DNA of 63,882 nt, filler included, from Actinomycetota bacterium (GTDB lineage: Bacteria; Actinomycetota; Acidimicrobiia; IMCC26256; VFJJ01), in the NCBI GenBank assembly GCA_009886115.1. It is 4 parts of 4 records of this genome, joined end to end, with 100 filler letters (N's around TTAATTAATTAA, not from the genome) between each part and the next. Parts side by side here need not be neighbours in the genome. Positions count along the whole stretch, not along the records: positions 1 to 17,661 come from VFJJ01000113.1; 3 more parts are not named here. One strand, 5' to 3'. The notes below the pieces were generated by a model, which did no database searches, had not been told where the DNA came from, and worked only from the letters and a program-made list of their open reading frames with translations. Every line of letters begins with the position of its first letter. Position 1 is the stretch's first letter. A program made the translations under genes and the position numbers. Shown piece by piece: positions 1 through 31,678 of the stretch.

Positions 1-16
1 CTGGTCGGCGTCGAAC

Positions 17-247
17 GTGGCGTGGTGGTCGAACGGGTCGACGAGTCGGTCGGGGAGATCGTGGTGTCGTGTCGGCTCCGGGCGGGCACGACCCGCCGGT
101 GTGGTCGGTCACCTCGGTGGGTGGGTCGCCGAGCACTGCGCTCCGGCCGGTTCGCCGGTTCGTGAGCACTACGTGGTCTCGTTCCCTGCGCCGGTCGAGG
201 AGTTCCGCACCGAGATCCACTGGCCGGTCCTACCACCGCCCCGATGA
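17..247 (+). CDS. C-terminal fragment of a GyrI-like effector-binding domain protein (MerR-type regulator tail), partial or degraded
   Basis: LGGWVAEH...PVREHYVVS...FRTEIHWPV resembles GyrI-like C-termini; the 5' part is not recognisable and lies at the window edge. Confidence 0.4.
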   Translation: MAWWSNGSTSRSGRSWCRVGSGRARPAGVVGHLGGWVAEHCAPAGSPVREHYVVSFPAPVEEFRTEIHWPVLPPPR

Positions 248-294
248 ATCACCTCACCGAGAGCACCAGCGACCTCATCGGCAAGGAGCACAGC

Positions 295-654
295 ATGACC
301 CTGTCCCTCGCCCACATCGCGTTCGATTGCGATGACGCTCGCGTTCTCGCCGACTTCTGGTCGAAGGCGATCGGTCGCCCCGTCAACGACGGAGCAGAGC
401 CGTTCTTCGCCACGATCGACTATCCACCCGCGCCGGGCCGTCCGGCTTGGCTGTTCATGAAGGTGCCCGAGGGAAAGACCGCCAAGAACCGGATGCATCT
501 CGACCTCGACAGCAACCCCGGTGAGGGTGGCCGCGACGCAGAAGTCGCCCGTTTGGTCTCGTTGGGTGCGACCAGGGTCGGTGAGCACGACGAATGGGGG
601 CACCAGTGGGTCGTGATGAACGACCCGGAAGGCAACGAGTTCTGCGTCAGCTGA
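295..654 (+). CDS. VOC/glyoxalase-like family protein
   Basis: HIAFDC..LADFW, KNRMHLDL and DPEGNEFCV motifs; AAGGAG RBS upstream of ATG 295. Confidence 0.9.
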   Translation: MTLSLAHIAFDCDDARVLADFWSKAIGRPVNDGAEPFFATIDYPPAPGRPAWLFMKVPEGKTAKNRMHLDLDSNPGEGGRDAEVARLVSLGATRVGEHDEWGHQWVVMNDPEGNEFCVS

Positions 655-804
655 CGGGGCGGCTCGCCGTGTGCCCGACGTGCCACGGGGCGGGGCGACG
701 AGGTCCCAGGACCAGGGGCCCCTCCCGCCGACCAACGTGCACGGGCCATCGCGTTGGCATCGGGACGGTCACTCGGATGCCTGGGACGCTTCGGCGGCCA
801 CAGG

Positions 805-1296
805 TCAGTCGGTGGCGAGGATGGCGTCGATCTGTCCCATGGCGGCGGCGAGTCCTTCCTCCATGCCCATCGCGATGAGCTGGTCCATGGCCTCACTCGA
901 GGGGAACCGCGACTCGATGAGCATCCGGGTGGCGCCGCTCGGCAACTCGGCGAACGTCACGCTGAACTGTGTCGTCGGCAGCGTTTCCTCGGGGTTGCCC
1001 TCGGCGTCGGCGAAGCCGTCTTCCAGGTCGAGGCGGTGTGGCTCGTCGACGGCGAGGACCGTCCACCATCCATGGTGCTGCTCGCCTTCGGGGCTCGTCA
1101 TGAAGTACGCGACCTTCCCGCCCGGACGGAGGTCGTGTTCGACAACGGTCGCCGGATAGGAGGGCGGGCCCCACCAGCGCTCGAGCTTGCGTGGGTCGGC
1201 CCAGAGCTGCCAGACGCGCTCGATCGGGGCGTCCCACTCGCTGGCGACGGTCATCGTGAGGGCGGTCGGGTCCTTGCGGACGTCGGTCACGGTCAT
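805..1296 (-). CDS. SRPBCC/AHSA1 domain protein
   Basis: APIERVWQLW.DP..LERWWGP, DLRPGG and GMEEG motifs; start overlaps the ArsR stop (ATGA). Confidence 0.92.
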   Translation of the reverse strand: MTVTDVRKDPTALTMTVASEWDAPIERVWQLWADPRKLERWWGPPSYPATVVEHDLRPGGKVAYFMTSPEGEQHHGWWTVLAVDEPHRLDLEDGFADAEGNPEETLPTTQFSVTFAELPSGATRMLIESRFPSSEAMDQLIAMGMEEGLAAAMGQIDAILATD

Positions 1297-1652
1297 GGAT
1301 GCTCTCCTTGATCGGGCTCGGCGAGAACGTCGGCGAAGCGCTGCATGCGGTCACGCCAGATCGCCTCGAGCTCGTCGAGCAAACGGTTGACGTCGCGTAC
1401 GGTGTCGATGCGCCCGCAGACGATCCGCTCGCGTCCTCGCTGGTGCTTGGTGACGAGCTCGGCCCGCTCGAGGACGGCGACGTGTTTCTGCACGGCGGCG
1501 AAGCTCATCGGATAGCGCCGAGCGAGGTCGGTCACGGAGTGCTCGCCGCGCAACACGAGCCGGACGATGTCGCGGCGGGTTCTGTCAGCGAGTGCATGGA
1601 ACAGAAGGTCTGTTCGCTCAGCTTCCGAGGTTCGCTCCTGATCTACAACCAT
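1293..1652 (-). CDS. ArsR/SmtB family transcriptional regulator
   Basis: LFHALADRTRRDIV...AVQKHVAVLERAELV..RGRE; classic ArsR-SRPBCC pair; start placed at ATG 1652, downstream of the predicted promoter. Confidence 0.92.
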   Translation of the reverse strand: MVVDQERTSEAERTDLLFHALADRTRRDIVRLVLRGEHSVTDLARRYPMSFAAVQKHVAVLERAELVTKHQRGRERIVCGRIDTVRDVNRLLDELEAIWRDRMQRFADVLAEPDQGEHP

Positions 1653-1689
1653 CTGGTTGTACGTTACAGACATTCTCTACCGGCGTCAA
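1644..1689 (-). promoter_or_regulatory. sigma70-type promoter plus palindromic ArsR operator
   Basis: Minus strand TTGACG (1689-1684), 17 nt, TAACGT (1666-1661); perfect inverted repeat TACAACC-ATCT-GGTTGTA (1644-1661) overlaps the start codon. Confidence 0.75.
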
Positions 1690-1804
1690 GGGGACGATCG
1701 CGACCGACGTGATCGACGCGACCGTCGCGCGAACCGACGATTACGATCCGCGAGAGCGACGCTTCCCGGCTTCACCCCAGCGAGTTGCACGAGGAAGGAA
1801 CGTC

Positions 1805-2764
1805 ATGCGGGCAGCAGTCTTCGACCGGTACGGCCCACCGGAGGTCGTGCGCGTCGCCGAGGTTCCCCAGCCGGCACCGCGCGCCGACGACGTGCTGGTG
1901 CGGATCGAAACGGCGGCGGTCACGTCGGGGGACGCGCGTATCCGGGGTGCACGGTTTCCGGCGGGGTTCGGGTTGCTGGCTCGTCTGGCGTTCGGTGTTG
2001 TCCGACCGCGGCGACCGGTCCTGGGTTCTTCGTTCTCCGGGGTCGTTGAGACCGTCGGGTCACGTGTGGTCGACTTCGCGCCTGGCGACGAGGTGTGCGG
2101 CATGACCGGAACCAAGCTGGGCGCGCACGCGGAGTATGTCGCCGTGCCGGCGAAGAGGCTCGCCCGCAAACCAGCTGGGGTGAGCCACGACGATGCGGCC
2201 GGGTTGCTGTTCGGTGGCACGACGGCGCTGTTCTTCTTGCGGGACAAGGCGTCGGTGACGTCGGGCATGTCGGTGCTCGTGAACGGCGCCTCCGGCGCGG
2301 TGGGCACGAACGCGGTCCAGATCGCCAAGCACCTCGGCGCAACGGTCACGGGAGTGACCAGCGCAGGGAACGCCGCAACGGTCACGAGCCTCGGCGCCAA
2401 CCGGATCATCGACTACGCCAACGAAGATCTCTCAGCCACCACCGAGCGATTCGACGTCGTGCTCGACACGGTCGGAAACCTGTCGAGGAGGTCCGGTCGG
2501 CGACTGCTGCGCCCCGACGGGGTGTTGGTGCTCGCCGTCGCGGGCCTGTCGGACACGATCCGAGCGCGCGGCAACGTCGTCGCTGGAAGTGCGCCCGAGC
2601 GAGTCGACGACTTCGATCTCTTGCTGCGACTCGTGGCCGACGGCGAGATCATCGTCGTGCACGATCAGACCTACGACCTCGACGAGATCGCCGACGCCCA
2701 TCGACGCGTCGACAGCGGCCACAAGCTCGGCAACGTGGTCGTGCGCCCATGGCCGCCCGCCTGA
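1805..2764 (+). CDS. NAD(P)-dependent MDR-family (quinone oxidoreductase-like) dehydrogenase
   Basis: MRAAVFDRYGPPEV, GAHAEYV, VLVNGASGAVG, GHKLGNVVV. Confidence 0.9.
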   Translation: MRAAVFDRYGPPEVVRVAEVPQPAPRADDVLVRIETAAVTSGDARIRGARFPAGFGLLARLAFGVVRPRRPVLGSSFSGVVETVGSRVVDFAPGDEVCGMTGTKLGAHAEYVAVPAKRLARKPAGVSHDDAAGLLFGGTTALFFLRDKASVTSGMSVLVNGASGAVGTNAVQIAKHLGATVTGVTSAGNAATVTSLGANRIIDYANEDLSATTERFDVVLDTVGNLSRRSGRRLLRPDGVLVLAVAGLSDTIRARGNVVAGSAPERVDDFDLLLRLVADGEIIVVHDQTYDLDEIADAHRRVDSGHKLGNVVVRPWPPA

Positions 2765-3009
2765 TCACCCCGGGCGTGATCTCCTCGTGGGCTGCCCAGG
2801 CGCCGCGTGCTCGCTCGTCGAGATCGATCGGGGTCGACTCGCTCTCCAAGTTCAGGAGAGACGCAATTTGAACGAACCTGAAATGGGTCGCCCGAACCGA
2901 GCGGTAGGGTTCCCCGACGGGGCACACTGTCGGCGCCTCCACCGGATCGAACTCGGGGACGGGCGACGGGGGCGACAGCCCGACGGTGTGACGGGACGGG
3001 ATTTCTCTC

Positions 3010-4182
3010 ATGGGCGATGAACGGCACTTCGAGGTCGAGCCGCTGCTCGCGCAAGCTCGGGAGCGGGCCGGCGGCCTCGAGGATCTCGGGTCGGGCCCCT
3101 TCCTCGAGCCGTTGGCCCGCTTCGTCGACTCGCTGAACGACGAGGCTCGCCTGAACGACGTCGGCCGGTACGTGGCCCGGGAGCGCGTGCTGCTGCACAC
3201 GGTGAACCGGTTGCTGTACGTCAACGACCGCGCCCGGTACCCCGGCATCGCCGAGGTGGCCATCGAGCGGCCCGTGTTCATCGTCGGCCTTCCTCGGACC
3301 GGTACGACGATCCTCCACGACATCTTGGCCCAGGACCCGGCCAACCGGGCCCCCCTCACGTGGGAGCTCATGTTCCCGTCGCCTCCGCCCACGACCGAGG
3401 ACGCCGCGACCGACCCGCGCATCGCTGCGTGCCAGGCGACCATCCCGACCGGCGACATGCACTCCGAGCTGTTCAAGGCCATGCACCCCATGGGTGCGCT
3501 GCTGTCGCAGGAGTGCGTGGTGATGATGGGCGACGCCATGTGCACGGCCTTGTTCCACAACCAGTTCCGGGTTCCGAGCTATCAGGACTGGGTCGACGAC
3601 GAGGCCGACTGGGCCCCGGTGTACGATTTCCATCGCCGCCAGCTCCAGCATCTCGGCTGGCGCAAGCCCGGTGACCGGTGGGTGCTGAAGACGGGCGGGC
3701 ACCTGTGGGGGCTCGAGCATCTCCTGGCGGTGTACCCCGATGCCCGCATCGTGTTCACCCACCGTGATCCGGTGAAGTCGATGACGTCCTACGCCAGCCT
3801 CACCACGTTGGTCCGCTCCCGGTGCAGCGACGACGTCGACCCTTTCGAGATCGCAGCCGACTGGACGAGCCGCCTGCGGGCCAAGGTCGAGCATGCCCTC
3901 GACGTCCGGCTGAACGGCGAGTACCCCGATGCCGTGTTCTACGACATGTACTTCCACGACTTCGTCGCCGACCAGTTCGCCGAGATCACCAAGATCTACG
4001 ACGCCTTCGAGCTTCCGATGTCGAACGTCGGCGCCCCGAGCATGCGGGCGTACATCGCCGAGCATCCCAAGGGCAAGGACGGCATCCATCGGTACGAGCC
4101 CGAGGAGTACGGGGTCGATCCAATCACCGTTCGACGGGACTTCGCCCGATACATCGAGCATTTCGGCTTGCGACCCGAGTAG
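3010..4182 (+). CDS. PAPS-dependent sulfotransferase (Sulfotransfer_3 type)
   Basis: FIVGLPRTGTT 5'-PSB loop, WVLK, THRDP...S 3'-PB motif. Confidence 0.9.
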   Translation: MGDERHFEVEPLLAQARERAGGLEDLGSGPFLEPLARFVDSLNDEARLNDVGRYVARERVLLHTVNRLLYVNDRARYPGIAEVAIERPVFIVGLPRTGTTILHDILAQDPANRAPLTWELMFPSPPPTTEDAATDPRIAACQATIPTGDMHSELFKAMHPMGALLSQECVVMMGDAMCTALFHNQFRVPSYQDWVDDEADWAPVYDFHRRQLQHLGWRKPGDRWVLKTGGHLWGLEHLLAVYPDARIVFTHRDPVKSMTSYASLTTLVRSRCSDDVDPFEIAADWTSRLRAKVEHALDVRLNGEYPDAVFYDMYFHDFVADQFAEITKIYDAFELPMSNVGAPSMRAYIAEHPKGKDGIHRYEPEEYGVDPITVRRDFARYIEHFGLRPE

Positions 4183-4201
4183 CGACGAGCCAGGAGCCAC
4201 C

Positions 4202-5260
4202 ATGACGACACCGACCACCATGCGCGCGTGGCGCACCCACGAGTACGGCGAGCCGAAGCACGCGCTGAAGCTCGATCAGGTCGACGTGCCCGAGCCCGGC
4301 CCGGGCGAGATCAGGGTGCGCGTGTCTGCGATCCCCCTGAACCTCAACGATCTCGAGCGGGTGACGGGCGGCAACATGGCGGTGCGGATCGAGCTCCCGT
4401 ACAGCCCGGGCATGGAGACCATGGGGATCGTCGATGCCTGTGGCCCAGGCACCGAGGACCGGCTCGGTCAGCGGGTTGCCGGAACCACGCGCATGGCGCA
4501 CGGCGGATTCGCCGAGTACGTCATCTGCCCGGCCGCGTCGGCCTTCGAGATCCCCGAGACCATCCCGCTCCCCGACGCGGCATGCTTGTACTTCCCGTAT
4601 CACCTGGCGTGGCTCGGCCTGTACGACCGAGCCGAGCTCCAGGCCGGCGAGACGGTCCTGATCCATGCGGCGGCTGGCGGGTCGGGCTCGGCCGCGATCC
4701 AGTTGGCCAAGCATCGTGGGGCCACGGTCTTCGCCACCGTGGGCTCCGAAGCCAAGATGCAGCTCTGCTCCGACCTCGGTGCCGACCACGTCATCAACTA
4801 CACCACCGACGACTTCGCTGCCGTGGTGATGCGCGAGACCGGCCAGCGTGGTGTCGACGTGGTGTTCGACAACGTCGGCGACTCGGTGATGGCTGCTTCG
4901 ATGAATGTCACGGCGTACAACGGCCGCTACCTCATGATGGGCTTCGCGTCCGACAAGACCGTTGCAGACGAGAAGTACCTCGTACCCCGACGGGTGATGA
5001 TGGGGAACTTCAAGCTCTGCGGCGTGCTGCTCGCCTACGTCGCCGACGGCGCGGTCGCCCCGACCAAGAGCGCCATCGGAGCCAACTTCGCCCCGGCGTC
5101 ACGGGGCGCAGACATCAACCGGCAGATCGTCGATCTGGTGTTGGCCGGGGCGGTCAAGCCGGTGATCGGATCGGTTGTCGACTTCAATGATCTGCCCGCG
5201 GCCCTGAGCGCCATGGCCGGTCGTGAGACCGTCGGCCGGGTGGTCGCTCAGCTCGGCTGA
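4202..5260 (+). CDS. NADPH:quinone oxidoreductase family (MDR) protein
   Basis: LPYSPGME, GGFAEY, VLIHAAAGGSGSAAIQ, GVDVVFDNVG; AGGAG RBS. Confidence 0.9.
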   Translation: MTTPTTMRAWRTHEYGEPKHALKLDQVDVPEPGPGEIRVRVSAIPLNLNDLERVTGGNMAVRIELPYSPGMETMGIVDACGPGTEDRLGQRVAGTTRMAHGGFAEYVICPAASAFEIPETIPLPDAACLYFPYHLAWLGLYDRAELQAGETVLIHAAAGGSGSAAIQLAKHRGATVFATVGSEAKMQLCSDLGADHVINYTTDDFAAVVMRETGQRGVDVVFDNVGDSVMAASMNVTAYNGRYLMMGFASDKTVADEKYLVPRRVMMGNFKLCGVLLAYVADGAVAPTKSAIGANFAPASRGADINRQIVDLVLAGAVKPVIGSVVDFNDLPAALSAMAGRETVGRVVAQLG

Positions 5261-5342
5261 TCAGCTCCCGAGACACGGCTACGATCCGCCTACGGTGCGC
5301 GGGCATCGTACGAGCGGGCGCCGGTCGGGCGATTCGAGGACC

Positions 5343-7679
5343 ATGGTGAACCACATCTCCAGTCGGGACGCGCCGACCCATGGACCGGCGGCCCGCATCG
5401 TCGGCCTGGTGCACGGCACCCGGCATCCGGAACCGTCGTGGACGCCGGCCGAAGCCGTGCTGCGCCTCGATCCCGCCGATGTGGCTCATTTCCTGCATGC
5501 CCACTTCACCGGTGTCGGCGACCGCGACGTGGTCGCCGTCGGGCTCCCGGTCTCACCCGGCGCCGCCATGGGCGAGATCGTGCTGTCGAGCGAGGCCGCG
5601 GTGACCGCATCCCAGCAGGGTCGCTCGGTGATCCTCGTCCGGCGGGAGACCACACCCGATGACGTGGTCGGGATGCAGTGCTCGCGGGGGATTCTCACGA
5701 CGCGCGGAGGGGTGGCGAGCCATGCCGCGCTCGTCGCTCGCGGGTGGGGTGTACCTGCGGTCGTGGGCGCCGCCGACGTGGAGATCACGGCCGACGGCAT
5801 CCGCGTGGGCGGACGGTCGATCCCAACGGGGAGCCGGCTGTCGATCGACGGCTCGACGGGCGAGGTGTTCCTCGGCGATGCCGCCGTGGCCACCGCCGTG
5901 GCCCCGCCCGAGCTCGAGGTCCTCATGGGCTGGGCCGACCGCTTCGCTGCCGGAGCCGTGACCGTGCGAGCCAACGCCGACCGGGCCTCGGATGCCCGTC
6001 ACGCCCGATCCCTTGGTGCACAAGGCATCGGCCTGTGTCGGACCGAGCACATGTTCCTCGACGAGGATCGCCTTCCCCTGGTCCGGCGCTTGATCCTCAC
6101 CGACGATCCCGACGAGGAACGGGCCGTCCTGGGCGAGCTCGAAGAGGCGCAACGCCAAGATTTCGAGGGGATCCTCGAGGCGATGGACGGGCTGCCGGTC
6201 ACCATCCGCCTGCTCGACGCCCCGCTGCACGAGTTCCTCCCCGACATCGAGACGCTCGTCGTGGGTGAGGCGGCGGGATCCCTCGACGCGTTCGGGCTCC
6301 GCGAGCTCGCGGCCGTGCGCCGTCTGCGTGAAGCCAATCCGATGATCGGGACCCGCGGCGTACGTCTCGGCGTCATCAGGCCGGGGCTGTACCCCATGCA
6401 GGTGCGGGCCATCTGCCGCGCTGTGGCGAGTCGGACCGGAGCCGGTGGCCACCCGCGCGTCGAGATCATGATCCCGCTGGTGATCGACCCGTCCGAGATG
6501 GTGCTGGCCCGCACCTGGGTCGCCGCGGCGATCGCGGTCACCGGAGCCGCGGGCCTCGGCGTCGACGTCGTGCGTGTGGGCGCCATGATCGAAACGCCTC
6601 GGGCCGCACTCTTGGCTGCCGAGCTCGCGCTGGTCGCCGACTTCTTCTCCTTCGGCACCAACGATCTCACGCAGCTGACCATGGGCCTCAGTCGCGACGA
6701 TGTCGAGATGCAACTCCTGCCCCGCTACATCGCCGACGGGATGCTGCCGGCCAATCCCTTCGAGGTGATCGACGAGCCGGGCGTCATCCGTCTGGTGCGT
6801 CAGGCCTGCGCCGATGCGCGAGCAACCGATGCGAACTTCGCCATCGGTGTGTGCGGTGAGCACGCTGGCGACCCCGGGTCGATCGAGCTGCTCGTCGGGT
6901 GCGGCGTCGACTCGGTGAGCTGCTCACCCCTGCGGGTCCCGATCGCTCGTCTGGCGGTCGCCCATGCGCTGTTGCGCTCGGGACGTGTCGCGCCCGAGGC
7001 CGTACCGGCACCGGGCCCCGTGACCGTGTCGACGCCGGTCGCCGATGACCGTGTCCGTGATGAGGAGCTCGACGAGCTGACCATGCGTGCACGTGTGCTG
7101 CATTCCTTGCGTATCAAGGGGTTCGCTCCGTCCGAGATGCTCGCCGAGGTCGCTGATCTCGATCTCGCGGCGACCTCGCGCCATCTCGACCTGCTCCTCG
7201 CCGACGAGCTGGTGCGGTTCATGCCGGCGCGTTCGTTGTGGGCGCTCACGCCGATGGGAACCCACCACCATCGCACCCTGTTGCCTGGGGTCGACGACGC
7301 GGGGCTCGCAGGGTTGCGCGCGGCCTACGAGCCGTTCCTCGGGCTCAATCTCCGGCTCAAGGAGCTGTGCACCTCGTGGCAGCTCCGCGACGGGGTTCCC
7401 AACGACCACAGCGACGAGAGCTACGACGCCGCCATCGTGGGCCGTCTCGTCGACCACCACCATGAGGCCCTCGGAGTCATCGGTGCCTTCGTCGCAGCGG
7501 TGGCGCGGTTCGGCGCGTATCCACGCCGGCTGACCCGCGCCGCGCAGCGCACCTCAGCCGGCGAGACCACGATGTTCACCGGCGTCATGTGCGGCTCGTA
7601 CCACGACGTCTGGATGGAGCTCCACGAGGACCTGATCGTCGTGCTCGGCATCGACCGTGTCGCCGAAGGCAGCTTCTGA
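5343..7679 (+). CDS. PPDK-derived protein: phospho-His swivel domain + PEP/pyruvate barrel + C-terminal Rv1126c-like wHTH/helical domain, with no ATP-grasp domain
   Basis: SPGAA, ETTPDD, GGVASHAA, GIGLCRTEHMF, IRLLD.PLHEFLP, FSFGTNDLTQ, CGEHAGDP; C-terminal WQLR..PNDH.D..YD and SYHDVWMELHEDL; GAGG RBS upstream of ATG 5343. Confidence 0.85.
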   Translation: MVNHISSRDAPTHGPAARIVGLVHGTRHPEPSWTPAEAVLRLDPADVAHFLHAHFTGVGDRDVVAVGLPVSPGAAMGEIVLSSEAAVTASQQGRSVILVRRETTPDDVVGMQCSRGILTTRGGVASHAALVARGWGVPAVVGAADVEITADGIRVGGRSIPTGSRLSIDGSTGEVFLGDAAVATAVAPPELEVLMGWADRFAAGAVTVRANADRASDARHARSLGAQGIGLCRTEHMFLDEDRLPLVRRLILTDDPDEERAVLGELEEAQRQDFEGILEAMDGLPVTIRLLDAPLHEFLPDIETLVVGEAAGSLDAFGLRELAAVRRLREANPMIGTRGVRLGVIRPGLYPMQVRAICRAVASRTGAGGHPRVEIMIPLVIDPSEMVLARTWVAAAIAVTGAAGLGVDVVRVGAMIETPRAALLAAELALVADFFSFGTNDLTQLTMGLSRDDVEMQLLPRYIADGMLPANPFEVIDEPGVIRLVRQACADARATDANFAIGVCGEHAGDPGSIELLVGCGVDSVSCSPLRVPIARLAVAHALLRSGRVAPEAVPAPGPVTVSTPVADDRVRDEELDELTMRARVLHSLRIKGFAPSEMLAEVADLDLAATSRHLDLLLADELVRFMPARSLWALTPMGTHHHRTLLPGVDDAGLAGLRAAYEPFLGLNLRLKELCTSWQLRDGVPNDHSDESYDAAIVGRLVDHHHEALGVIGAFVAAVARFGAYPRRLTRAAQRTSAGETTMFTGVMCGSYHDVWMELHEDLIVVLGIDRVAEGSF

Positions 7680-7808
7680 ACGCCGGCGTACCGCATCCGA
7701 TCTCCTGTCGGGACTGCCACTCCGGGACTGCGACACCGAGACTGCCGGACGGACGGGGGATGCTGCTACCGTCCGGGCGCTGACCGACGGGGACGAGGGA
7801 GACGCTCG

Positions 7809-10118
7809 ATGATCGACGCCGTGCTGGCCGGGGTTCGGGTTGTCGACCTGTCGGACGGCATCGCCGGGCCGACTGCGGCGATGGTCCTGGCCGAGGCCGG
7901 GGCCGAGGTCGTGATGGTGGAACCGCCCGGCGGACGGCGGATCCGCTCGGCGCCCGGCTTTCGAACCTGGGGACGCAGCAAGCAGTCGGTGGTCGCCGAT
8001 CTCGCGTCGCCCGAAGGTCGGGCTCGCCTCGAGGATCTGCTCGCCGGAGCCGACGTGCTCGTGCACTCGTACTCGCCCAAGACCGCGATCGCGCTCGGCC
8101 TCGATGACGCTGCGCTCGCTGCCCGTCATCCCGCGCTGATCGTGTCGTCGGTGCTGGGTTGGCCCGCGAATCACGTTTGGGCCGAGCAACCCGTCGACGA
8201 CCTCCTCTCGTTGGCTCGCTTGGGAATCCTCGACGAGCAGCAAGGTCGACGCGCGGGGCCGATATATGTCCGGTTCCCGCTCGGGAGCTGGGGCGCGGTC
8301 TGGCTCGCTGCCATCGGGATCGTCGCCCGCCTGGTGGCTCGGGGGCGTACGGGCACGGCCGGTCCGGCCCATACCAGCCTGGTACAGGGCGCCTTGATCC
8401 CCATGATGATGCACTGGTCGCGGGCCGAAACGCCGTCAGAAGCGCTCCGGATCGGCATGCCCAAGGACCGCATGAACGCCACCCTGTTCGAGTGCAGCGA
8501 CGGCGTGTGGATCCACATCATGCCGCCGTGTCCCGACGACCTCCCGCTGATGCGTGAGGTGTTCGCCGAGATGGGTGAGGAGGTCATGGCCGAGGCCAAC
8601 CTCACGCACGGCAGTGGCTTGCCGATGTTCCCGAACTGGGGAGCGAACCTGGAAGCGTTCCTGCGCCGGCCGGCACGGGCGTGGCTCGAGAACATGTGGG
8701 CCAACGACCACCCGGTGCAGCAGGTGCTGCCCCTCGGTGAGATCCTCCGGGACGAGCAGGCCCTGGCGAACCGGTACGTCGTCGAGCTCGACGACCCCGA
8801 GGCCGGGCGCATCACCGTGCCTGGCGTGGCGATGACGCTCGACCCGCCGGCCCGGATCCTCCATGCGGCACCTGCGCTCGGCGAGCACCAGGAGACAGCG
8901 GGTTCGAGTTGGGCTCCGCGCGCTGCGGCCGACGTACGTGCTCAGGCGTTCAGCGATCGCGGTGGCGCGTCGCGACGTTGGCCCCTCGAGGGGCTCAGGG
9001 TGCTCGACTTCGGGAACTACCTCGCTGGCCCCCTGGGGCCCATGCTCCTCGCCGATCTCGGAGCCGATGTGGTGAAGGTCGAGGCCACGACCGGCGATCC
9101 CATGCGCTGGCCCGACTGGCCCTTCGCCGGGTGCCAACGGGGCAAGCGCACGGTGGCGCTCGATCTCAAGTCGCCAGCGTCGCGGCCGGCGCTCGAGGCG
9201 CTCTTGCGCTGGGCCGACGTCGTGCACCACAACCTGCGCATGCCCGCGGCGAAGCGCATCGGGCTCGATGCCGACTCGGTCCGCACGGTCAATCCCGACG
9301 TGGTGTTCTGCCACACGAGCTCGTACGGGCCAGCCGGCCCCCGAGCCGACTGGCCCGGGTACGACCAGCTCTTCCAAGCCTCGATCGGCTGGGAGCTGCT
9401 CGGTGCCGGCGAAGGAAACCCGCCCATGTGGCACCGGTTCGGCTTCATGGATCATCAGTGCGCCATGTCGTCGACGGTTGCGACGTTGCTCGCCGTCTTC
9501 GAGCGCGACCGGACGGGACGAGCCTCGAGCGTCGCCAGCTCACTGCTCGGCGCCGGCGTGCTCACCACGAGCGAGACCTATCTGCAGCCCGACGGCACCC
9601 TGGCGCCGGTCTCGACGCTCGACCGGGAGCAGATGGCGATGACGCCAGGCTGCCGGTTGTTGCGATGCTCGGACGGGTGGGTGGCCATGGCGGCGCACCT
9701 CGACGACGAGATCACGGCTGCGTGCGCGGCCCTGGGCTGCCGGAAGCCCGAGGACCTGCCGGGCGCGGCGGCCGGGTTGAGGCAGGTCGACGTCGTGGAG
9801 CGCCTCGCCGATGCCGGCGTGCCGGTTGAGGCCGTCCGGCTGGATCAGAAGAGCTCGTTCTTCGACGACCCCGCCAACGTCAAGGCAGGCATGGTCGCCA
9901 GCTACGACCACGTCGACTGGGGGAGGTTCGAGCAGCCGGGAGCCATGTGGTACTTCGGCGATCTCGACACCCGGTTCGAACACGCCCCGCCCGTCCTCGG
10001 CCAGCACACCGTCGAGATCCTGCTCGAGGTCGGGCTCGACCGAGCCGCGATCGACACGCTCATCGAGATGGGCGCGGCCAAGGTGGCCGAGCCCGTCCTG
10101 AAGCCGCTACCCGCCTGA
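7809..10118 (+). CDS. Class III CoA-transferase (CaiB/BaiF), tandem double domain
   Basis: Two N-terminal-type motifs (LAGVRVVDLS..IAGP and LEGLRVLDFG.YLAGP); PGYDQLFQA catalytic Asp motif in the second domain. Confidence 0.92.
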   Translation: MIDAVLAGVRVVDLSDGIAGPTAAMVLAEAGAEVVMVEPPGGRRIRSAPGFRTWGRSKQSVVADLASPEGRARLEDLLAGADVLVHSYSPKTAIALGLDDAALAARHPALIVSSVLGWPANHVWAEQPVDDLLSLARLGILDEQQGRRAGPIYVRFPLGSWGAVWLAAIGIVARLVARGRTGTAGPAHTSLVQGALIPMMMHWSRAETPSEALRIGMPKDRMNATLFECSDGVWIHIMPPCPDDLPLMREVFAEMGEEVMAEANLTHGSGLPMFPNWGANLEAFLRRPARAWLENMWANDHPVQQVLPLGEILRDEQALANRYVVELDDPEAGRITVPGVAMTLDPPARILHAAPALGEHQETAGSSWAPRAAADVRAQAFSDRGGASRRWPLEGLRVLDFGNYLAGPLGPMLLADLGADVVKVEATTGDPMRWPDWPFAGCQRGKRTVALDLKSPASRPALEALLRWADVVHHNLRMPAAKRIGLDADSVRTVNPDVVFCHTSSYGPAGPRADWPGYDQLFQASIGWELLGAGEGNPPMWHRFGFMDHQCAMSSTVATLLAVFERDRTGRASSVASSLLGAGVLTTSETYLQPDGTLAPVSTLDREQMAMTPGCRLLRCSDGWVAMAAHLDDEITAACAALGCRKPEDLPGAAAGLRQVDVVERLADAGVPVEAVRLDQKSSFFDDPANVKAGMVASYDHVDWGRFEQPGAMWYFGDLDTRFEHAPPVLGQHTVEILLEVGLDRAAIDTLIEMGAAKVAEPVLKPLPA

Positions 10119-10153
10119 CGTTCAAGGCACGTCTGGAGGGCGAGGCCACGCCG

Positions 10154-10999
10154 ATGTTCGATCTCGCAGGCAAGGGTGTCGTCGTCACCGGCGGCGGACG
10201 GGGTCTCGGGCGGGGGATCGCCGCCGCCATGGGCATGGCCGGCGCCGATGTCGTGATCGCCGGTCGCACCGAGGCGACGCTCGACGCGGTGGCTGACGAG
10301 GTCCGGACCCACGGTGTTCGATGCACGCCGGTCGTGGCCGATGTCACCCGCCGCGACGACCTCGACCGGCTCGTGCAGACGGCACTCGACGAGCTCGGCG
10401 CGATCGACTGCTGGGTGAACAACGCCGGCAGTGCCGACCCGTCCGATGTGGGACCCCTGATCGACACGACCGAGGCCCACTGGGACGCCGTCGTCGACCT
10501 GAACCTGAAGTGGACCTTCTTCGCCGCACAGGCCGCAGCGCGGACGATGATCGCCCGTGGCCACCCGGGCTCGATCATCAACATCTCATCGAGGAGCGGA
10601 TCACAGCCCAACCCGATGACGGGCCAGTACGGCGCGGCCAAGGCGGGCGTCGAGAACCTGACCGCCACCATGGCGGTGGAGTGGGGACATCACGGCATCC
10701 GGGTCAATGCCGTGGCTCCGGGCGTCGTGCCCACCGAGCACAGCCTGGCCCCCGGCGGCTCGATGAGTCGCCCGAGTCGGCTCGCTCGTCAGGTTGCCAC
10801 CGTGCCCTTGCGCCGGCTGGGAACCCCGTTCGACGTCGGTGCGCTGTGCGTGTTCCTGGCCTCGGACGAGGCGGCGTGGATCACCGGCGAGACGATCCAG
10901 ATCACCGGGGGGAGTCGGGTACCCGTGGGGTACCTCACGTTCATGCACCACATCACCGAGCAGCTCGAACGCGAGGGCCCCGACGCCGCGGGCGGCTGA
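10154..10999 (+). CDS. SDR family oxidoreductase
   Basis: TGGGRGLG, NNAG, YGAAK, IRVNAVAPG. Confidence 0.93.
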   Translation: MFDLAGKGVVVTGGGRGLGRGIAAAMGMAGADVVIAGRTEATLDAVADEVRTHGVRCTPVVADVTRRDDLDRLVQTALDELGAIDCWVNNAGSADPSDVGPLIDTTEAHWDAVVDLNLKWTFFAAQAAARTMIARGHPGSIINISSRSGSQPNPMTGQYGAAKAGVENLTATMAVEWGHHGIRVNAVAPGVVPTEHSLAPGGSMSRPSRLARQVATVPLRRLGTPFDVGALCVFLASDEAAWITGETIQITGGSRVPVGYLTFMHHITEQLEREGPDAAGG

Positions 11000-11084
11000 G
11001 TCGGCCCCGGTCGAGCGGCGCAGCGAGGCGATAGGGTCCGAGCCCGGTGTCCGGTGCCGATCGGACGGGATCTCGAGGTGGCTC

Positions 11085-11825
11085 ATGAAGTTGGCCGAGC
11101 GGGTGGCGATCGTGACCGGCGCCGGTTCCGGTCTGGGTCGGATGTACGCCGAGACCCTGCTCGCCGAGGGAGCGCTGGTCTCGATCTCCGACATCGACGG
11201 TCGGCTGGCGCGCGAGACCGCGGCCGAGCTCACCCGGACCGGCCCCCCGGGAAGCCGAGCGATCGGCTTCGAGGTCGACGTGGCGTCCGACGACCAGATC
11301 GAGCAGATGGTCGAAGCGACCGTCTCCGAGCTCGGCGGCGTCGACATCCTCGTGAACAACGCCGGGCTGGCCCGGGGACGCTGGGGCCTCACGACCGAGC
11401 TCACGACTGCGGAGTGGCACCAGATCCTGGCGGTCAACGTGGTCGGGATGGTGAGCTGCGCCCGGGCCGTCAGGCCGCACTTCCAGGCCCGGGGCGGCGG
11501 CGTGATCGTCAACCAGTCGTCGATGGGCGCGTACATGTTCTCGGGTGCCTACGGGGTGTCGAAGCTGGCGGTCAACGGGCTCACGGGCGCCATGGCCGAG
11601 GAGCTGGCGTCCGACAACATCCGTGTGAACGGCATCGCCCCCGGGATGATGAGCCAGCGCCTCCCCGATGAGCTCGTCGCCTCGGTCCTGGCGAAGCAGT
11701 TGATAGCCCGGCGGGGCCGCCCGGAAGACCTCAGCGGCGTGCTCGTGTTCCTCTGCTCCGACGACTCCGCGTTCATGACGGGCCAGACCCTGCTGGTCGA
11801 CGGCGGATCGATCCGACTGCCCTGA
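11085..11825 (+). CDS. SDR family oxidoreductase
   Basis: TGAGSGLG, NNAG, YGVSK, IRVNGIAPG, VDGG. Confidence 0.93.
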   Translation: MKLAERVAIVTGAGSGLGRMYAETLLAEGALVSISDIDGRLARETAAELTRTGPPGSRAIGFEVDVASDDQIEQMVEATVSELGGVDILVNNAGLARGRWGLTTELTTAEWHQILAVNVVGMVSCARAVRPHFQARGGGVIVNQSSMGAYMFSGAYGVSKLAVNGLTGAMAEELASDNIRVNGIAPGMMSQRLPDELVASVLAKQLIARRGRPEDLSGVLVFLCSDDSAFMTGQTLLVDGGSIRLP

Positions 11826-11888
11826 GCCAGCTCGACTGCCTGATCCGGGTCGACGATCGTGGCGGCGCTCGACGGCGCAGGTCGGGTT

Positions 11889-12737
11889 TCACCAGCCCCA
11901 GTAGTCGCCACCGAAACGACGATCGCGCTCTCGGATGGCGGCCTTCATGCCGTTGGCCCGTGACTCGGCGTGGAAGTCGAACTCGTCGGGTTCGCGTTGC
12001 ATGCGCACGACCATGGGGTGCGCCGTGTAATGGGGGGTGAACGCGGCGCCGATCCCGAGCATGTCGAAGCTGAGGTGGGCGACCGTACGGCTGATGGCGA
12101 TCCCGTCACGCGGGAGCGATGCCAGCGCCGCCACGAGCTCGTCGGTCGCGCGGTCGAGATCGGCCCGAGGTACCACCCGGTTGATCAGGTTCAACCGTTC
12201 GGCTTCTACCGCGGTGACCTTGCGCCCGGTCATGACGAGCTCGGTGGCCTTCTTCACGCCGCACTGCGAGACGAGGAACGGGAACAGCCAACTCGTGCCA
12301 CTCGAGCCGAAGCGCTCCTCGGGCAGGCCGAACACGGCATCATCGGCGGCCACGGCCATGCTGCACACGAGCACGAGGTACATCCCGGCGCCGATGCAGT
12401 TCGAGTGCACCTTGGCCACGATGGGCTTCCCCGAGTACAACAGGTCGCGCATGAGCTCGGCCCGCACCCGGAGCTTGCGGATGGCGAAGCGCGTGCCCTT
12501 GGTCTCGGCGCCGCCGTAGAAGTCGTCGGGGTTCGACATGTCGAACCCGGCGCTGAACGACGCCCCGTTCCCTTCGAGCACGATGACCTTCACGGCATCG
12601 TCGGCGTCGGCCTGTCGAACCAACCGGGCGATCTGTTCGAGCATCGAATCCGTGAGCGCGTTGTGCTGCTTCGGTCGATTCAGCAGGATGCGGGCGACGG
12701 GGCCCGCCGTCGAGTACTCGACACTGTCGTCTGACAT
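11889..12737 (-). CDS. Enoyl-CoA hydratase/isomerase
   Basis: LNRPKQHNAL, FSAGFD, FGLPEERFG, ELVMTGR; GAGGA RBS. Confidence 0.92.
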   Translation of the reverse strand: MSDDSVEYSTAGPVARILLNRPKQHNALTDSMLEQIARLVRQADADDAVKVIVLEGNGASFSAGFDMSNPDDFYGGAETKGTRFAIRKLRVRAELMRDLLYSGKPIVAKVHSNCIGAGMYLVLVCSMAVAADDAVFGLPEERFGSSGTSWLFPFLVSQCGVKKATELVMTGRKVTAVEAERLNLINRVVPRADLDRATDELVAALASLPRDGIAISRTVAHLSFDMLGIGAAFTPHYTAHPMVVRMQREPDEFDFHAESRANGMKAAIRERDRRFGGDYWGW

Positions 12738-12766
12738 CGAGAGATCCTCCTCAGTCGTGCGGGTCG

Positions 12767-13927
12767 TCACGATGGCGCTCCCAGCCCCGCTCCCAGCCCC
12801 GCCTCCTTGGCCTCCTTGGCCCGGAAGTGCGGGATGACGTACTCGCCGAACTGGCGGATGGTCTCCATCATCACGTCCTGGGGGATGGTCCCCATCTGGA
12901 TCATGCACATGATCTCGTCGGCCCCGGCCCGCTCCAGCTCCTCGACGTAGCGGATGGCGTCGTCGCGGTTTCCGTAGGCGTGCTCGATGTTGAACGTGCT
13001 GGTGGCGTTGGGGCTCAAGGGGATCTGCATCTCGCTGATGCGCGCGATCACGTCGCCCTTGGCCTTGGCGATCATCGCCGTGGTGTCTTCGTCCTCGCTC
13101 CCGGGGTCGGGCGCAGGAGTGTGCAGGTTCCAGTGCATGATGGCCTCGGCGAAGAACCGCTGAGCCCGAGAACCGATCTTGAACGCCCGGTCGCGATCGT
13201 CGAGCACCACGGCCGGGCACAGCGCCGAGAAGTGGTTGTTGGCGTGATCGGAGACGAAGCGCTCACCCGAGCGGCTGGCGATGGCGTCGTCGTAGATCGT
13301 GCGCATCTCCCGGATCTCGCCGGCTCCGGCGAAGCCCAGCACCAGAGCGCCGACGCCGAGCTCGGCCGCCAGGCGCACGGTGTCCATCTTCGTGCAGGCC
13401 ATGAACAACGGGGGATGGGGATCCTGCACGGGACGGGGCAGGATCGGGTGCGGCGCCACGTCGAGGAGCCCGTGCCACTCGAACTCGTCGGTCCGCCAGC
13501 AACTCGAGATCATCCGGAGCGCTTCCTCCATCTGCGCGTAGGTGTTCTCGGGCTCCACCCCGAACGCCGACATCTCCTGGAGCGTCGCACCTCTTCCAGC
13601 GCCGACGTCGAGACGGCCACCCGAGAGGATGTCGAGCATGGCGATGCGCTCGGCGGCCCGGAGCGGGTGGTTGTAGTTGAACGGCATGCACACGACACCG
13701 TGGCCGATGCGGATCGTCGACGTCCGGGCGGCCACCCAGGTCAGGAAGATCTCGGGGGCCGACATGTGGGCGTACCACTTCAGGCAGTGGTGCTCGACGG
13801 CCCAGACCCGGTCGAACCCCATCTCCTCGGCGTACACGGCCTGCTCAACGCAGTTGCGGATGCACTCGTGCTCGTTCTCACGAGTCGGGAATGCCATCTG
13901 GGCCTCGAAGATCATCGAGAACTTCAC
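12767..13927 (-). CDS. LLM class (luciferase-like) flavin-dependent oxidoreductase
   Basis: WAVEHH, SAPEIFL, AERIAMLDILSGGR, PRPVQDPHPPL. Confidence 0.93.
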   Translation of the reverse strand: MKFSMIFEAQMAFPTRENEHECIRNCVEQAVYAEEMGFDRVWAVEHHCLKWYAHMSAPEIFLTWVAARTSTIRIGHGVVCMPFNYNHPLRAAERIAMLDILSGGRLDVGAGRGATLQEMSAFGVEPENTYAQMEEALRMISSCWRTDEFEWHGLLDVAPHPILPRPVQDPHPPLFMACTKMDTVRLAAELGVGALVLGFAGAGEIREMRTIYDDAIASRSGERFVSDHANNHFSALCPAVVLDDRDRAFKIGSRAQRFFAEAIMHWNLHTPAPDPGSEDEDTTAMIAKAKGDVIARISEMQIPLSPNATSTFNIEHAYGNRDDAIRYVEELERAGADEIMCMIQMGTIPQDVMMETIRQFGEYVIPHFRAKEAKEAGLGAGLGAPS

Positions 13928-14844
13928 GGGGTGCGCCCTTCGGTCGGGGTCGGACGCTGCGCCGCCACGGGGTCGGAGCCTCCTGGGAGGCCGAGCATGC
14001 TGGCTACGTCAGCCAGGAATTCGATGTGGTCGTCGATCGAGGAGTGCCCCATGCCCATGGTGACGATCGATGCGTGGGTGCCGCCGACCTCGCCCCAGGC
14101 CCGGATGCGGTCGGCGGCCTCCGACGGCGACCGCGCCCCGAAGACGGCGTACTCGCCGCCGAACTCCCCGACCTCGCGGTTCTGGGCGCTCACGAGGTCG
14201 CGGAGCCGATCCCACGTCTCGTGCACGTTGGTCGACCGGCCGCCGAAGATGAAGCCGTCTCCGAGCCGGGCCGCTCGATCGAGCGCGGCGCTGCTCGAAC
14301 CACCCAGCCAGATGGGGACGGGCCGGCTCGGGTGCGGAAGCGTGCCGGCCCGGTCGACGCGGTCGAATCGTCCGGTGAAGTCGACGACGGGCTCGGTCCA
14401 CAGCCGCCGGAGCAGCCCGATCTGCTCTTCCTCGCGAGCGCCGCGGGTGCGGAAGTCCTGGCCGAGCGACTGGTACTCGACGTGGTTCCAGCCCACGCCC
14501 ACACCGAGACGGAAACGACCCCCCGAGAGGAGGTCGAGGTCGGCAACCTGACGCGCGACAAGCGCCGTCTGACGCTGCGGGAGGACGATCACGCCACTGA
14601 CAAAGCCGATCCGCTCGGTGCGCCCGGCCAGGTAGGCGAACATCACGAACGGATCGTGAAACGGATCGTGCTCTGTGTACGGACCGGTCAGGGTCGGGGT
14701 GCGGTGCGCGTGCTCGGCACCGAGCACGTGGTCGTAGGCGAGGAGGTGGTCGAAGCCCAGCTCCTCGGTCGCACGCCCGATCCGGCGGACCGCATCCGGG
14801 TCGCCGCCGAGCTCGATCTGGGGGTACACGACGCCGATCTGCAT
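13924..14844 (-). CDS. LLM class, probably F420-dependent, oxidoreductase
   Basis: YDHVLG, HDPFV, LPQRQTALVARQ, GVGWNHVEY, PIWLGG. Confidence 0.9.
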   Translation of the reverse strand: MQIGVVYPQIELGGDPDAVRRIGRATEELGFDHLLAYDHVLGAEHAHRTPTLTGPYTEHDPFHDPFVMFAYLAGRTERIGFVSGVIVLPQRQTALVARQVADLDLLSGGRFRLGVGVGWNHVEYQSLGQDFRTRGAREEEQIGLLRRLWTEPVVDFTGRFDRVDRAGTLPHPSRPVPIWLGGSSSAALDRAARLGDGFIFGGRSTNVHETWDRLRDLVSAQNREVGEFGGEYAVFGARSPSEAADRIRAWGEVGGTHASIVTMGMGHSSIDDHIEFLADVASMLGLPGGSDPVAAQRPTPTEGRTP

Positions 14845-14936
14845 TGCGCATGATCGCACCACGCGAGTCACGGGGACGATCCGGCGGAACGGTACTGGGT
14901 CTTGGGCGTCGGGTACTCGCTATCGGGTCCTGGCTA

Positions 14937-15875: not shown

Positions 15876-15876
15876 G

Positions 15877-17028: not shown

Positions 17029-17188
17029 GTCGACCCCTTGCTCGCTCCGAAGTGCTCGTCGGCCCCCGGTGATTGTGCCGGGGTGATTGTGCCGGAACGG
17101 GCTCACCGGTGTCGGGCGCGCTCGATACGTGGGGCCGACGCTGCGCTCGGGTCGTTGCCGTGTCGGCACTGGAGGTCGTCATGATTCC

Positions 17189-26994: not shown

Positions 26995-27010
26995 TGGAGA
27001 AAGGGAGAGC

Positions 27011-29130: not shown

Positions 29131-29158
29131 GCCCTTCGTGAGCCCTTCGTGAGCCTTC
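29127..29158 (+). repeat. Tandem 11-bp repeat GTGAGCCCTTC x2 plus a variant copy
   Basis: gtgagcccttc gtgagcccttc gtgagccttc at the permease/LLM junction. Confidence 0.9.
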
Positions 29159-31030: not shown

Positions 31031-31042
31031 GACCCCAGCATC

Positions 31043-31624: not shown

Positions 31625-31678
31625 GGTGGCCTCCGCAGGTTGACGTGCTCACGCGGCGCATGTGCGAACGTATCCGGC

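Follow-up and report, generated by a model that had tools for sequence, protein, structure and literature searches.

What can a relative of pyruvate phosphate dikinase (PPDK) do without the domain that binds ATP, and what is the role of a new domain at its C-terminus? A gene of this kind is located in a 63,882-nt stretch of DNA (the window), which consists of four parts of the assembly GCA_009886115.1 of an Actinomycetota bacterium (Acidimicrobiia; IMCC26256; VFJJ01). The gene lies on part VFJJ01000113.1 (window positions 1 to 17,661). It encodes a protein of four parts: a swivelling histidine (His) domain, a phosphoenolpyruvate (PEP)/pyruvate barrel, a disordered tether, and a C-terminal domain of about 200 residues, here called the SYH domain. 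With roughly even confidence, we regard it as a three-station swivelling-His phosphotransfer protein, in which the ATP-grasp station of PPDK has been dropped and a tethered SYH station has been added. This reading starts from the observed domain make-up, catalytic residues, selection, family size, fusions, gene neighbours, and predicted docking.

The PPDK-type donor half

The features of the gene and its product are summarized in Table 1. The Pfam domain map of the protein contains PEP-utilizers (PF00391, E = 3.2e-20) and PEP-utilizers_C (PF02896, E = 3.5e-76), and there was no Pfam match to PPDK_N (PF01326), the ATP-grasp domain. The PPDK model TIGR01828 has 865 positions, and residues 34–543 match positions 357–864 of it. 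Because model positions 1–356 are unmatched, the score of 573.3 bits stays under the cut-off of 843.45. Residues 38–542 align with residues 366–873 of Flaveria PPDK (PDB 5jvn) with an E-value of 4.5e-138. A preliminary description of the gene, made from the DNA sequence, had stated that the N-terminal ATP-grasp domain is absent, and both searches bear this out.

The alignment with 5jvn places the phospho-carrier His127 in the catalytic loop RGGVASHAALVARGWG. Ala125 occupies the site at which PPDK has its regulatory Thr, two residues ahead of His127, and position 125 varies among relatives; the role of this Thr is described in PMC12167813. An alignment of 43 fused proteins was used for invariance counts and as input for docking. 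H127, R233–F238, G438–Q444, and C504-G-E are invariant in 43/43 of them. The phospho-His codon at 5721 and the RTEHMF, GTNDLTQ, and CGE motifs, which the preliminary description had called intact, are therefore not only all present but also invariant among the homologues. The AlphaFold2 model of the full-length protein has a predicted local distance difference test score (pLDDT) of 88.3 and a predicted template modeling score (pTM) of 0.70. Disorder (pLDDT below 50) is restricted to residues 1–10 of the leader, which is followed by a short helix (residues 15–27), and to residues 558–573 of the tether. Judged by its residues, the protein retains all parts for the PEP/pyruvate half-reaction and none for the ATP half-reaction.

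No separate ATP-grasp protein was found near the gene. PPDK_N had no match among the 52 window open reading frames (ORFs) scanned with Pfam. We also performed a tblastn search with the ATP-grasp parts of three VadK-type proteins, which are PPDK relatives with ATP-grasp and His domains and no barrel. The targets were the window and 80 Acidimicrobiia loci, fetched from species-representative genomes (80 different assemblies, with flanks of up to 8 kb per side and some contigs shorter). No match was obtained in these sources (0/81), whereas the same queries matched 10 of 12 plasmid loci. The plasmid loci belong to a set of 21 annotated records with a relative of the SYH domain, 12 of which were examined.

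The open frame spans 5223..7679 on the plus strand, and translation from ATG 5343 gives 778 residues. A public copy of the protein (P0002) is 100% identical and counts 777 residues; the start codon is therefore either ATG 5343 or GTG 5346. The sequence GAGGA is located upstream of the start codon at 5336–5340. The frame of the upstream Zn-dependent dehydrogenase (Zn-ADH) gene stops at 5260, and this leaves the spacer of 82 nt that the preliminary description had given. A promoter/terminator scan of 5100–7900 gave no promoter-like or terminator-like site.

Table 1. Features of the fused gene, with positions in the window and residues of the protein
Feature	Residues	Position	Strand	Basis or remark
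Spacer of 82 nt from the upstream Zn-ADH gene to the start codon		5261..5342	+
Whole coding sequence		5343..7679	+	778 aa and stop codon
Alternative start GTG		5346	+	would yield 777 aa
N-terminal leader, in place of the ATP-grasp domain	1–33	5343..5441	+	TIGR01828 and PDB alignments start at residues 33–38
PPDK linker helix and swivelling central His domain	34–185	5442..5897	+	PF00391
Phospho-carrier codon CAT	127	5721–5723	+	aligned with the His loop of PPDK
PEP/pyruvate-binding TIM barrel	186–545	5898..6977	+	PF02896, CRTEHMF, FGTNDLTQ, CGEH
Cys codon of CGEH	504	6852–6854	+	barrel motif
Flexible tether	546–579	6978..7079	+	variable in the fused-protein alignment
SYH domain, first half, acidic winged helix	about 580–649	7080..7289	+	AlphaFold2 models; RIKGF 590–594, wing R630/W633
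SYH domain, second half, long-helix bundle	652–778	7296..7676	+	AlphaFold2 models, conservation
SYH signature SYHDVWMELHEDL	752–764	7596–7634	+	translation

Conservation of the fused architecture

A PPDK part and a SYH part are found on the same strand and in the same frame, 100–196 nt apart, in 14 of the 80 Acidimicrobiia loci, and the same fusion therefore exists in other members of the class. The long frames of two loci (L064 and L073) looked fused at first; neither contains a PPDK part, and both were left out of the count. A search for long proteins, with the last 219 residues as the query and targets of 427–1362 residues, gave 166 matches. Among the best 120 of these 166, which were listed, 117 carry PF00391 and PF02896 and are about 780 residues long, including P0002, the window's own copy. 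The remaining three are shorter pieces with PF02896 only.

The ratio of nonsynonymous to synonymous substitution rates (dN/dS) was calculated against the orthologue in locus L001, which is 85% identical. The overall value is 0.14; by domain, it is lowest in the barrel (0.08), followed by the His domain (0.13) and the SYH domain (0.25). Every domain of the fused protein is under purifying selection, and no relaxed selection was found.

These results bear on the explanation that a PPDK gene is decaying here or that two unrelated genes were joined by misassembly. It is true that one third of PPDK is gone and that the protein scores below the TIGR01828 cut-off. However, the same junctions recur on 14 independent contigs and in the listed long proteins, the catalytic residues are all invariant, dN/dS is low, and the full-length model is confident. 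Decay or an assembly artefact is ruled out by these data for all practical purposes.

The genes around the fusion are a different matter. Of eight fused loci, only L001 shows the gene order of the window (sulfotransferase, ADH, the fused gene, and CoA-transferase). A Pfam survey of 31 neighbour proteins from the eight loci found no common partner gene. Because no neighbours are shared beyond L001, a pathway-specific role of the protein is not supported. The CoA-catabolic cluster, in which the preliminary description had set the gene, is present in the window but is not a conserved setting.

The SYH family

Members of the SYH family are characterized by a length of about 200 residues and by the motifs RIKGF, C-x2-WQ, NDH, and S-Y-H-x2-W-x-E-L-H-E/Q-D-L. 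The domain of the window has all of these traits. The last motif reads S752-Y-H754-D-V-W-M-E-L-H761-E-D-L, and it had been recognized in the preliminary description together with a start that resembles a winged helix-turn-helix (wHTH); both assignments hold. The AlphaFold2 model of the domain, built from 23 sequences, has a pLDDT of 88.9 and consists of a winged helix, followed by four long helices. The conserved elements of the helical half are K673, C676, W679, Q680, N687-D-H689, the T746-G-V-M loop, R772, and the C-terminal EGSF.

The SYH domain did not match any Pfam or NCBIfam family above the family's cut-off. Sub-threshold matches over the first 45 residues were obtained for HTH_20 (17.6 bits vs 27), MarR (14.0 vs 24.6), and the ArsR-type HTH_metalloreg (16.2 vs 55). 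A PDB sequence search with the domain gave 0 matches at E <= 10. When the model was compared with the PDB using Foldseek, only MarR/PadR winged helices were found (E >= 0.017, TM <= 0.35). They cover the winged-helix part only, and no fold match was obtained for the helical half. The known acceptor folds HPt, DHp, and HPr do not appear among the Foldseek matches listed or at E <= 0.001, nor in the PDB sequence search at E <= 10. Their absence lowers the probability that the SYH domain is an HPt, but not that it works like one.

The family is large. A profile search gave 1805 clusters at 50% identity (E <= 1e-3), 412 of them with E <= 1e-30. A search for SYH proteins of 120–384 residues found 1444 proteins, mostly of about 205 residues, which are unnamed or labelled 'MarR family'. 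Similarly, the relatives in the ESM Atlas are only Actinomycetota clusters that are unnamed or called 'transcriptional regulator family' and have no Pfam family. We counted conserved residues in 110 diverse stand-alone members. F665 is kept in 110 of them, G740 in 109, W679, W757, and S752 in 108 each, H754 and Q680 in 107, H761 and R772 in 106, H689 in 105, and C676 in 102. This degree of conservation is extreme for a regulator. The family is also acidic, with a median isoelectric point (pI) of 5.08. Charge statistics from the 23 sequences showed a net charge of the wHTH of zero or below in 23/23, and in the putative recognition helix, which is variable, the net charge ranges from −1 to −5 (23/23).

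Fusions and gene neighbours of the SYH domain

The company kept by the domain was examined by a Pfam survey of 24 longer representatives of the family. Eleven of them have a PPDK-family domain, including three with the full His domain and barrel and six with partial forms of this pair. P0253 is a natural fusion of an ATP-grasp domain, a His domain, and the SYH domain (PPDK_N, PEP-utilizers, and SYH), and P0368 joins an unknown domain X to a His domain (PEP-utilizers) and the SYH domain. Phosphatase domains are fused to the SYH domain in three representatives (His_Phos_1 in P0361 and P0366, and Y_phosphatase3 in P0324). The rest have other domains (three) or none (seven). P0376 and P0266 are single metagenomic predictions that join the SYH domain to SURF1 and CarboxypepD_reg, and they may be gene-calling joins. 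A further fusion, to an AMP-binding enzyme (acyl-CoA ligase), is found in the plasmid locus L086 (2417–4588).

In all 12 plasmid loci, the SYH domain is fused to, or encoded within two genes of, a protein with a swivelling His domain. A gene with the make-up of VadK (PPDK_N and PEP-utilizers) directly adjoins the SYH gene in nine of them: L081 (M. avium), L084, L085, L086, L087 (M. branderi), L088, L089, L091, and L092. In the other three, the VadK-type gene is one gene off (L090), the SYH domain shares one chain with a His domain (in cis, L082), or a gene for domain X plus a His domain is two genes off (L083). In L084 and L082, the SYH gene neighbours genes of His- or tyrosine-phosphatase families, as does the fused gene of the Acidimicrobiia locus L012. 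Judged by these fusions and gene orders, the SYH domain is tied to swivelling His domains in many independent ways.

Some of the plasmids have a recurring module, which was seen in Mycobacterium, Rhodococcus, Diaphorobacter, and Novosphingobium (L081 3365–9620, L089 1095–5895, L090 2437–7225, and L088 2343–6294). It contains a SYH gene, a VadK-type gene, a gene for domain X with a C-terminal swivelling His domain (a layout like that of HpeH), and often a gene for a DUF7065 protein. The module thus has two swivelling-His proteins around one SYH protein. On plasmid pRB98 of Rhodococcus oxybenzonivorans (L091, 365–8579), the genes encode a swivelling His domain alone, an unknown protein of 525 residues, an AMP-binding enzyme, a SYH protein, a VadK-type protein, a biotin carrier, a biotin carboxylase, and a carboxyltransferase. 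This order recalls the phosphorylation-then-carboxylation pathways for phenolic ketones.

The VadK-type neighbours lead to a system of M. tuberculosis. VadK (Rv1127c) is related to PPDK and consists of the ATP-binding and His domains alone; it autophosphorylates on His422 and needs ATP and Mg for this reaction (PMC13400623). In 2026 it was reported to be needed for virulence of M. tuberculosis, and it co-precipitates with enzymes that belong to the methylcitrate cycle (PMC13400623). Rv1126c is the operonic partner of VadK. Its co-expression raises the solubility of VadK, and a wash with 2 M NaCl is required to separate the two proteins (PMC13400623). In the portions of that report used here, Rv1126c is named solely as the operonic partner and no function is assigned to it. 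Two Mycobacterium proteins of 200–201 residues that adjoin VadK-type genes bear the SYH motif. The one from M. avium has 35% identity to the window domain (E = 1e-31) and keeps SYHTVWFELH. Rv1126c did not appear by name in the plasmid collection or among the 120 top-ranked relatives of the M. avium protein, which include 201-residue Mycobacterium proteins. From the gene order on the M. avium and M. branderi plasmids, the SYH family appears to include Rv1126c.

Predicted docking of the His loop on the SYH domain

The interaction between the His domain (residues 58–182) and the SYH domain (residues 575–778) was modeled by complex prediction, with inputs cut from the 43-row alignment. The interface score (ipSAE) was 0.81 (0.82, 0.78, and 0.81 in the runs), and the best of three controls gave 0.00. 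In calibration, 116 of 157 solved complexes attained the docking mark, as did 2 of 215 mismatched pairs; because our own alignments were used here, these counts hold only roughly. At least 92% of the contacts are common to the runs, and the pLDDT of the partner is at least 90. Recall of a known complex is unlikely because no similar complex has been solved (the SYH domain has no relative in the PDB).

On the His side, the predicted interface is formed by the phospho-His loop 121–135, including S126, H127, and R133. On the SYH side, it involves RIKGF 590–594, R630, K673, C676, Q680, T746–M749, H754, M758, E759, H761, E762, R772, and F778. The loop of the swivelling His127 is therefore predicted to reach a face that takes in two C-terminal histidines, H754 and H761. 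Alignment columns conserved in at least 90% of the sequences are enriched at the interface, both on the SYH side (17/30 vs 39/174 elsewhere, p = 2.4e-4) and on the His side (19/29 vs 34/96 elsewhere, p = 0.004). The model supports binding between the His and SYH domains but does not show it.

The preliminary description had proposed that an Rv1126c-like domain is a partner of the swivelling His domain and can be fed by either half of PPDK. This part of the proposal is supported because the SYH domain is fused to the His domain and barrel (14/80 loci) and to the ATP-grasp and His domains (P0253), and lies beside VadK-type genes (9/12 plasmid loci). The docking score, 0.81 vs 0.00 for the best control, and the published pairing of Rv1126c with VadK (PMC13400623) support it as well. 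The DNA-binding output that was attached to it is doubtful, as discussed below.

Comparison with known phosphotransfer systems

PPDK, PEP synthase, Enzyme I, and rifampin phosphotransferase are textbook examples of modular phosphotransfer enzymes with a swivelling His. The window protein shares with PPDK (TIGR01828; PDB 5jvn and 1kbl) a swivelling His domain and a PEP barrel of PPDK type, in which the catalytic motifs are kept. It differs from PPDK in the absence of the ATP-grasp domain, the replacement of the regulatory Thr by Ala, and the extra tethered SYH domain, and with this composition it should be unable to make PEP from ATP.

Enzyme I (EI) of the phosphotransferase system (PTS; PtsI/EI-Ntr; TIGR01417; PDB 2hwg) is similar to the window protein in that it has a His domain, a PEP barrel, and a docking module, but no nucleotide domain. 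Public pipelines label relatives of the window protein as 'PTS EI component'. However, the barrel and the His domain are PPDK-like (157.7 bits for TIGR01417 vs a cut-off of 341.7), and the docking module lies at the C-terminus and bears no relation to the EI module. The HPr-binding domain of EI has its own Pfam family, and only PF00391 and PF02896 matched the window protein; an EI-type HPr-binding domain was therefore not found. No HPr or EII genes were found among the window ORFs scanned. On this comparison, the window protein would work like Enzyme I but is built from PPDK parts, and it fails membership of both families.

VadK-type proteins (NF004531-like) contain the opposite half of PPDK, and the window protein is their mirror image. 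The NF004531 model matches it over the His part only (91.6 bits vs a cut-off of 456). In both the window protein and the VadK/Rv1126c pair, one of two complementary halves of PPDK is combined with a partner of about 200 residues. The two systems differ in the donor, which is ATP in the latter and is expected to be PEP in the former, and in their organization as two genes and one chain, respectively.

HpeHI, CreHI, and PpsAB are two-component small-molecule dikinases, and rifampin phosphotransferase (RPH) is their single-chain relative; in these enzymes, the swivelling domain shuttles between the ATP-grasp station and the substrate station (PMC12167813). The window protein shares this swivelling-His logic, with stations that are split or fused in varied orders (PMC12167813), and proteins of such a layout (domain X plus a swivelling domain) are encoded beside SYH genes on plasmids. 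In those enzymes (PMC12167813), the second-substrate domain has a RIF-binding-type fold and the donor is ATP, whereas SYH is a different domain. MarR/PadR regulators share the winged-helix fold with the first 70 or so residues of the SYH domain. They differ from it in that the SYH domain matches their families below the cut-offs, is acidic with a negative recognition helix, and carries an extra helical bundle without a solved counterpart. The literature searched contained no account of either the fused architecture or the SYH domain, and both are undescribed as far as our searches reach.

Proposed mechanism and alternative explanations

The phosphotransfer steps, the identity of the acceptor, and the output are presented here as we infer them. 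PEP would bind to the PPDK-type barrel and phosphorylate His127 in a reversible step with pyruvate as the product. The His domain would swivel, and its loop 121–135 would dock on an invariant face of the SYH domain (R590/K592/G593/F594, R630, K673, C676, Q680, T746–M749, H754, E759, H761, and R772). The phosphoryl group would be handed on at this face, and the likeliest acceptor would be a histidine of the SYH domain, H754 or H761. The result would be a His-to-His relay within one chain, akin to that from Enzyme I to HPr, in which Enzyme I hands its phosphate from His to His. The ratio of PEP to pyruvate would set the phosphorylation state and alter what the SYH domain binds, with a protein partner likelier than DNA. 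In other actinobacteria, the same module would be fed by ATP through VadK-type proteins, and the phosphatases that are fused to or located beside SYH domains would reset it. The SYH domain probably marks the place where the moving phospho-histidine delivers its phosphate.

The acceptor is probably one of the two SYH histidines, H754 or H761. They are favoured because three histidines are near-universal in the family, with two of them in the predicted interface, and because the pocket is constant despite very different neighbouring pathways. The fusions to His_Phos_1 enzymes argue in the same direction, since this family includes SixA, a phospho-histidine phosphatase.

In the main rival explanation, the SYH domain acts as a third station for catalysis or substrate binding and not as an acceptor. 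His~P would be given to a small molecule or to water, and the protein would be a PEP:X phosphotransferase in a catabolic cluster. We consider this a genuine possibility with a probability well short of even. The logic of ATP-grasp, swivelling, and second-substrate domains is established for RPH, HpeHI, CreHI, and PpsAB (PMC12167813). VadK-type proteins lack exactly a third domain of this kind, and a SYH gene adjoins them in most of the plasmid loci. The many invariant polar loop residues (NDH and the T-G-V-M-C-G loop) are as expected of an active site. Furthermore, catabolic neighbours are common, such as short-chain dehydrogenases/reductases (SDR), luciferase-like (LLM) oxidoreductases, P450, Rieske oxygenases, CoA ligases, and the biotin carboxylase of L091. 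However, the pocket is near-identical from Acidimicrobiia to Mycobacterium and Proteobacteria, where the pathways differ. A domain that binds varied substrates would be expected to vary as well, so that the ligand would have to be a universal one. A separate X plus swivelling protein is already present in several plasmid loci and resembles the substrate-binding component HpeH (PMC12167813) in its layout, and no ligand-binding fold was recognized by Foldseek. In another explanation, the protein is a MarR-like one-component transcription factor in which the PEP-charged His domain switches DNA binding by the winged helix, the PEP/pyruvate sensor of the preliminary description. The predicted fold of the first 70 or so residues, the weak HTH_20, MarR, and ArsR matches, the MarR and PadR regulators as best Foldseek matches, and the public label 'MarR family transcriptional regulator' are all in its favour. 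Nevertheless, the sequence matches are all under curated cut-offs (14–17.6 bits vs 24.6–55), and the structural matches are weak and confined to the wHTH part. The charge data, together with the use of the conserved winged-helix residues (RIKGF and R630) in the predicted protein interface, make a DNA-binding output unlikely, and the recognition helix is variable. We therefore judge this explanation to be unlikely as a whole, and the one-component DNA-binding output proposed earlier is doubtful.

The SYH domain may also be an adaptor or clamp that receives no phosphate. It would hold the His loop in an inactive state, or recruit a phosphatase or a separate ATP-grasp protein, as in a two-piece PPDK. 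Fusions to His_Phos_1, Y_phosphatase3, and the AMP-binding enzyme suit a targeting module, the predicted contact centres on the His loop, and two-piece dikinases such as HpeHI exist (PMC12167813). However, neither the window nor the 80 Acidimicrobiia loci gave an ATP-grasp match in the tblastn search. Three histidines and several Arg, Lys, and Glu residues are near-universal, which is more than the grip on a loop seems to need, and the PEP barrel is fully catalytic by its residues. An adaptor without phosphate is accordingly an improbable explanation.

Several observations weigh against transfer to a SYH histidine, the reading that we prefer. The link between the SYH domain and swivelling His domains is not universal in gene order because 66 of the 80 SYH genes from Acidimicrobiia are stand-alone genes whose fetched flanks contain no PPDK-type part. 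In six of these loci with a listed layout (L016, L024, L028, L030, L034, and L045; Ilumatobacteraceae and related metagenome-assembled genomes), a stand-alone SYH gene of about 205 codons, matched at about 7974–8594 in each, is located upstream of the same run of genes. According to Pfam analysis of L016, L030, and L045, the run consists of dapA, rnj (RNase J), a gene for an unknown protein of about 183 residues (absent in L045), and ftsK. About 90 nt at the end of the SYH gene are shared with the longest ORF in the dapA frame. No swivelling-His gene was found within 8 kb of the SYH gene in the dapA-type loci. This setting looks housekeeping, and the fusion data do not explain it. Foldseek showed no resemblance of the helical half to a solved HPt, DHp, or HPr fold, so that the case for an acceptor histidine draws on conservation and position only. 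The fusions to phosphatases or to the acyl-CoA ligase (L086) suit an adaptor or targeting role equally. The score of the complex is the model's own confidence, contact between two domains within a chain may have structural causes, and the test of interface conservation depends on the alignment that was also given to the model. Finally, Rv1126c is absent from Table 1 of PMC13400623, which gives the five co-immunoprecipitated proteins that passed a stringent filter.

A broader proposal is that the SYH domain represents an unrecognized class of histidine phospho-acceptors and forms, with swivelling-His donors, a third kind of His phosphorelay in bacteria, in addition to two-component systems and the PTS. 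We put it forward tentatively, as possible rather than probable. In such a relay, PEP or ATP may charge the swivelling His, which would pass its phosphate to a SYH histidine, and SixA-like or Cys-based phosphatases, either fused or encoded next to it, may reset the system. The window protein may be a PEP-fed single-chain form, VadK–Rv1126c an ATP-fed two-gene form, and the SYH protein encoded upstream of dapA in Ilumatobacteraceae a housekeeping form.

Other features of the window

The gene downstream of the fused gene (7809–10118, plus strand) encodes 769 residues with two family-III CoA-transferase stretches (a doubled CoA_transf_3). A doubled CoA_transf_3 gene also follows the orthologue in L001 (6368–8659). 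Elsewhere in the window there are seven matches to luciferase-like (LLM) oxidoreductases (12767–14871, 29149–32701, 34758–35915, and 43288–43551). Acyl-CoA dehydrogenase domains occur in six ORFs (one truncated), and CoA ligases and enoyl-CoA hydratases are represented three times each. By these annotations, the 64-kb window is a dense lipid or xenobiotic catabolic island.

The region 41441–43551 has overlapping frames on opposite strands. A minus-strand frame of 596 residues has a UDG domain only at its end, and a plus-strand acyl-CoA dehydrogenase has a cut C-terminal domain (profile positions 1–101 of 150). The luciferase-like match at 43288–43551 is a fragment of 87 residues (profile positions 55–123 of 314). 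From these frames, the region looks like gene fragments or the product of a rearrangement. At 46313–46948 on the minus strand, a PIN-domain gene (130 residues) is located directly downstream of a 79-residue frame without a family, which is the usual layout of VapBC-type toxin-antitoxin pairs. Two further frames, 61812–63875 (minus strand, 687 residues) and 26969–28219 (plus strand, 416 residues), have coding-like composition and no Pfam match at E <= 1e-5. The latter sits between two ABC permease genes.

Implications

In this study, a new combination of modules was found in a swivelling-His protein. It points to an undescribed family of partner domains, which comprises 1805 clusters and has no Pfam entry and no solved structure. 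The label 'MarR family regulator', under which SYH proteins are filed, may be wrong. For VadK-type kinases, the natural fusions (a "Rosetta stone") put forward the SYH/Rv1126c-like protein as a candidate for the missing station. The single-chain protein from an environmental bacterium is a harmless model in which this idea can be tested with PEP as the donor.

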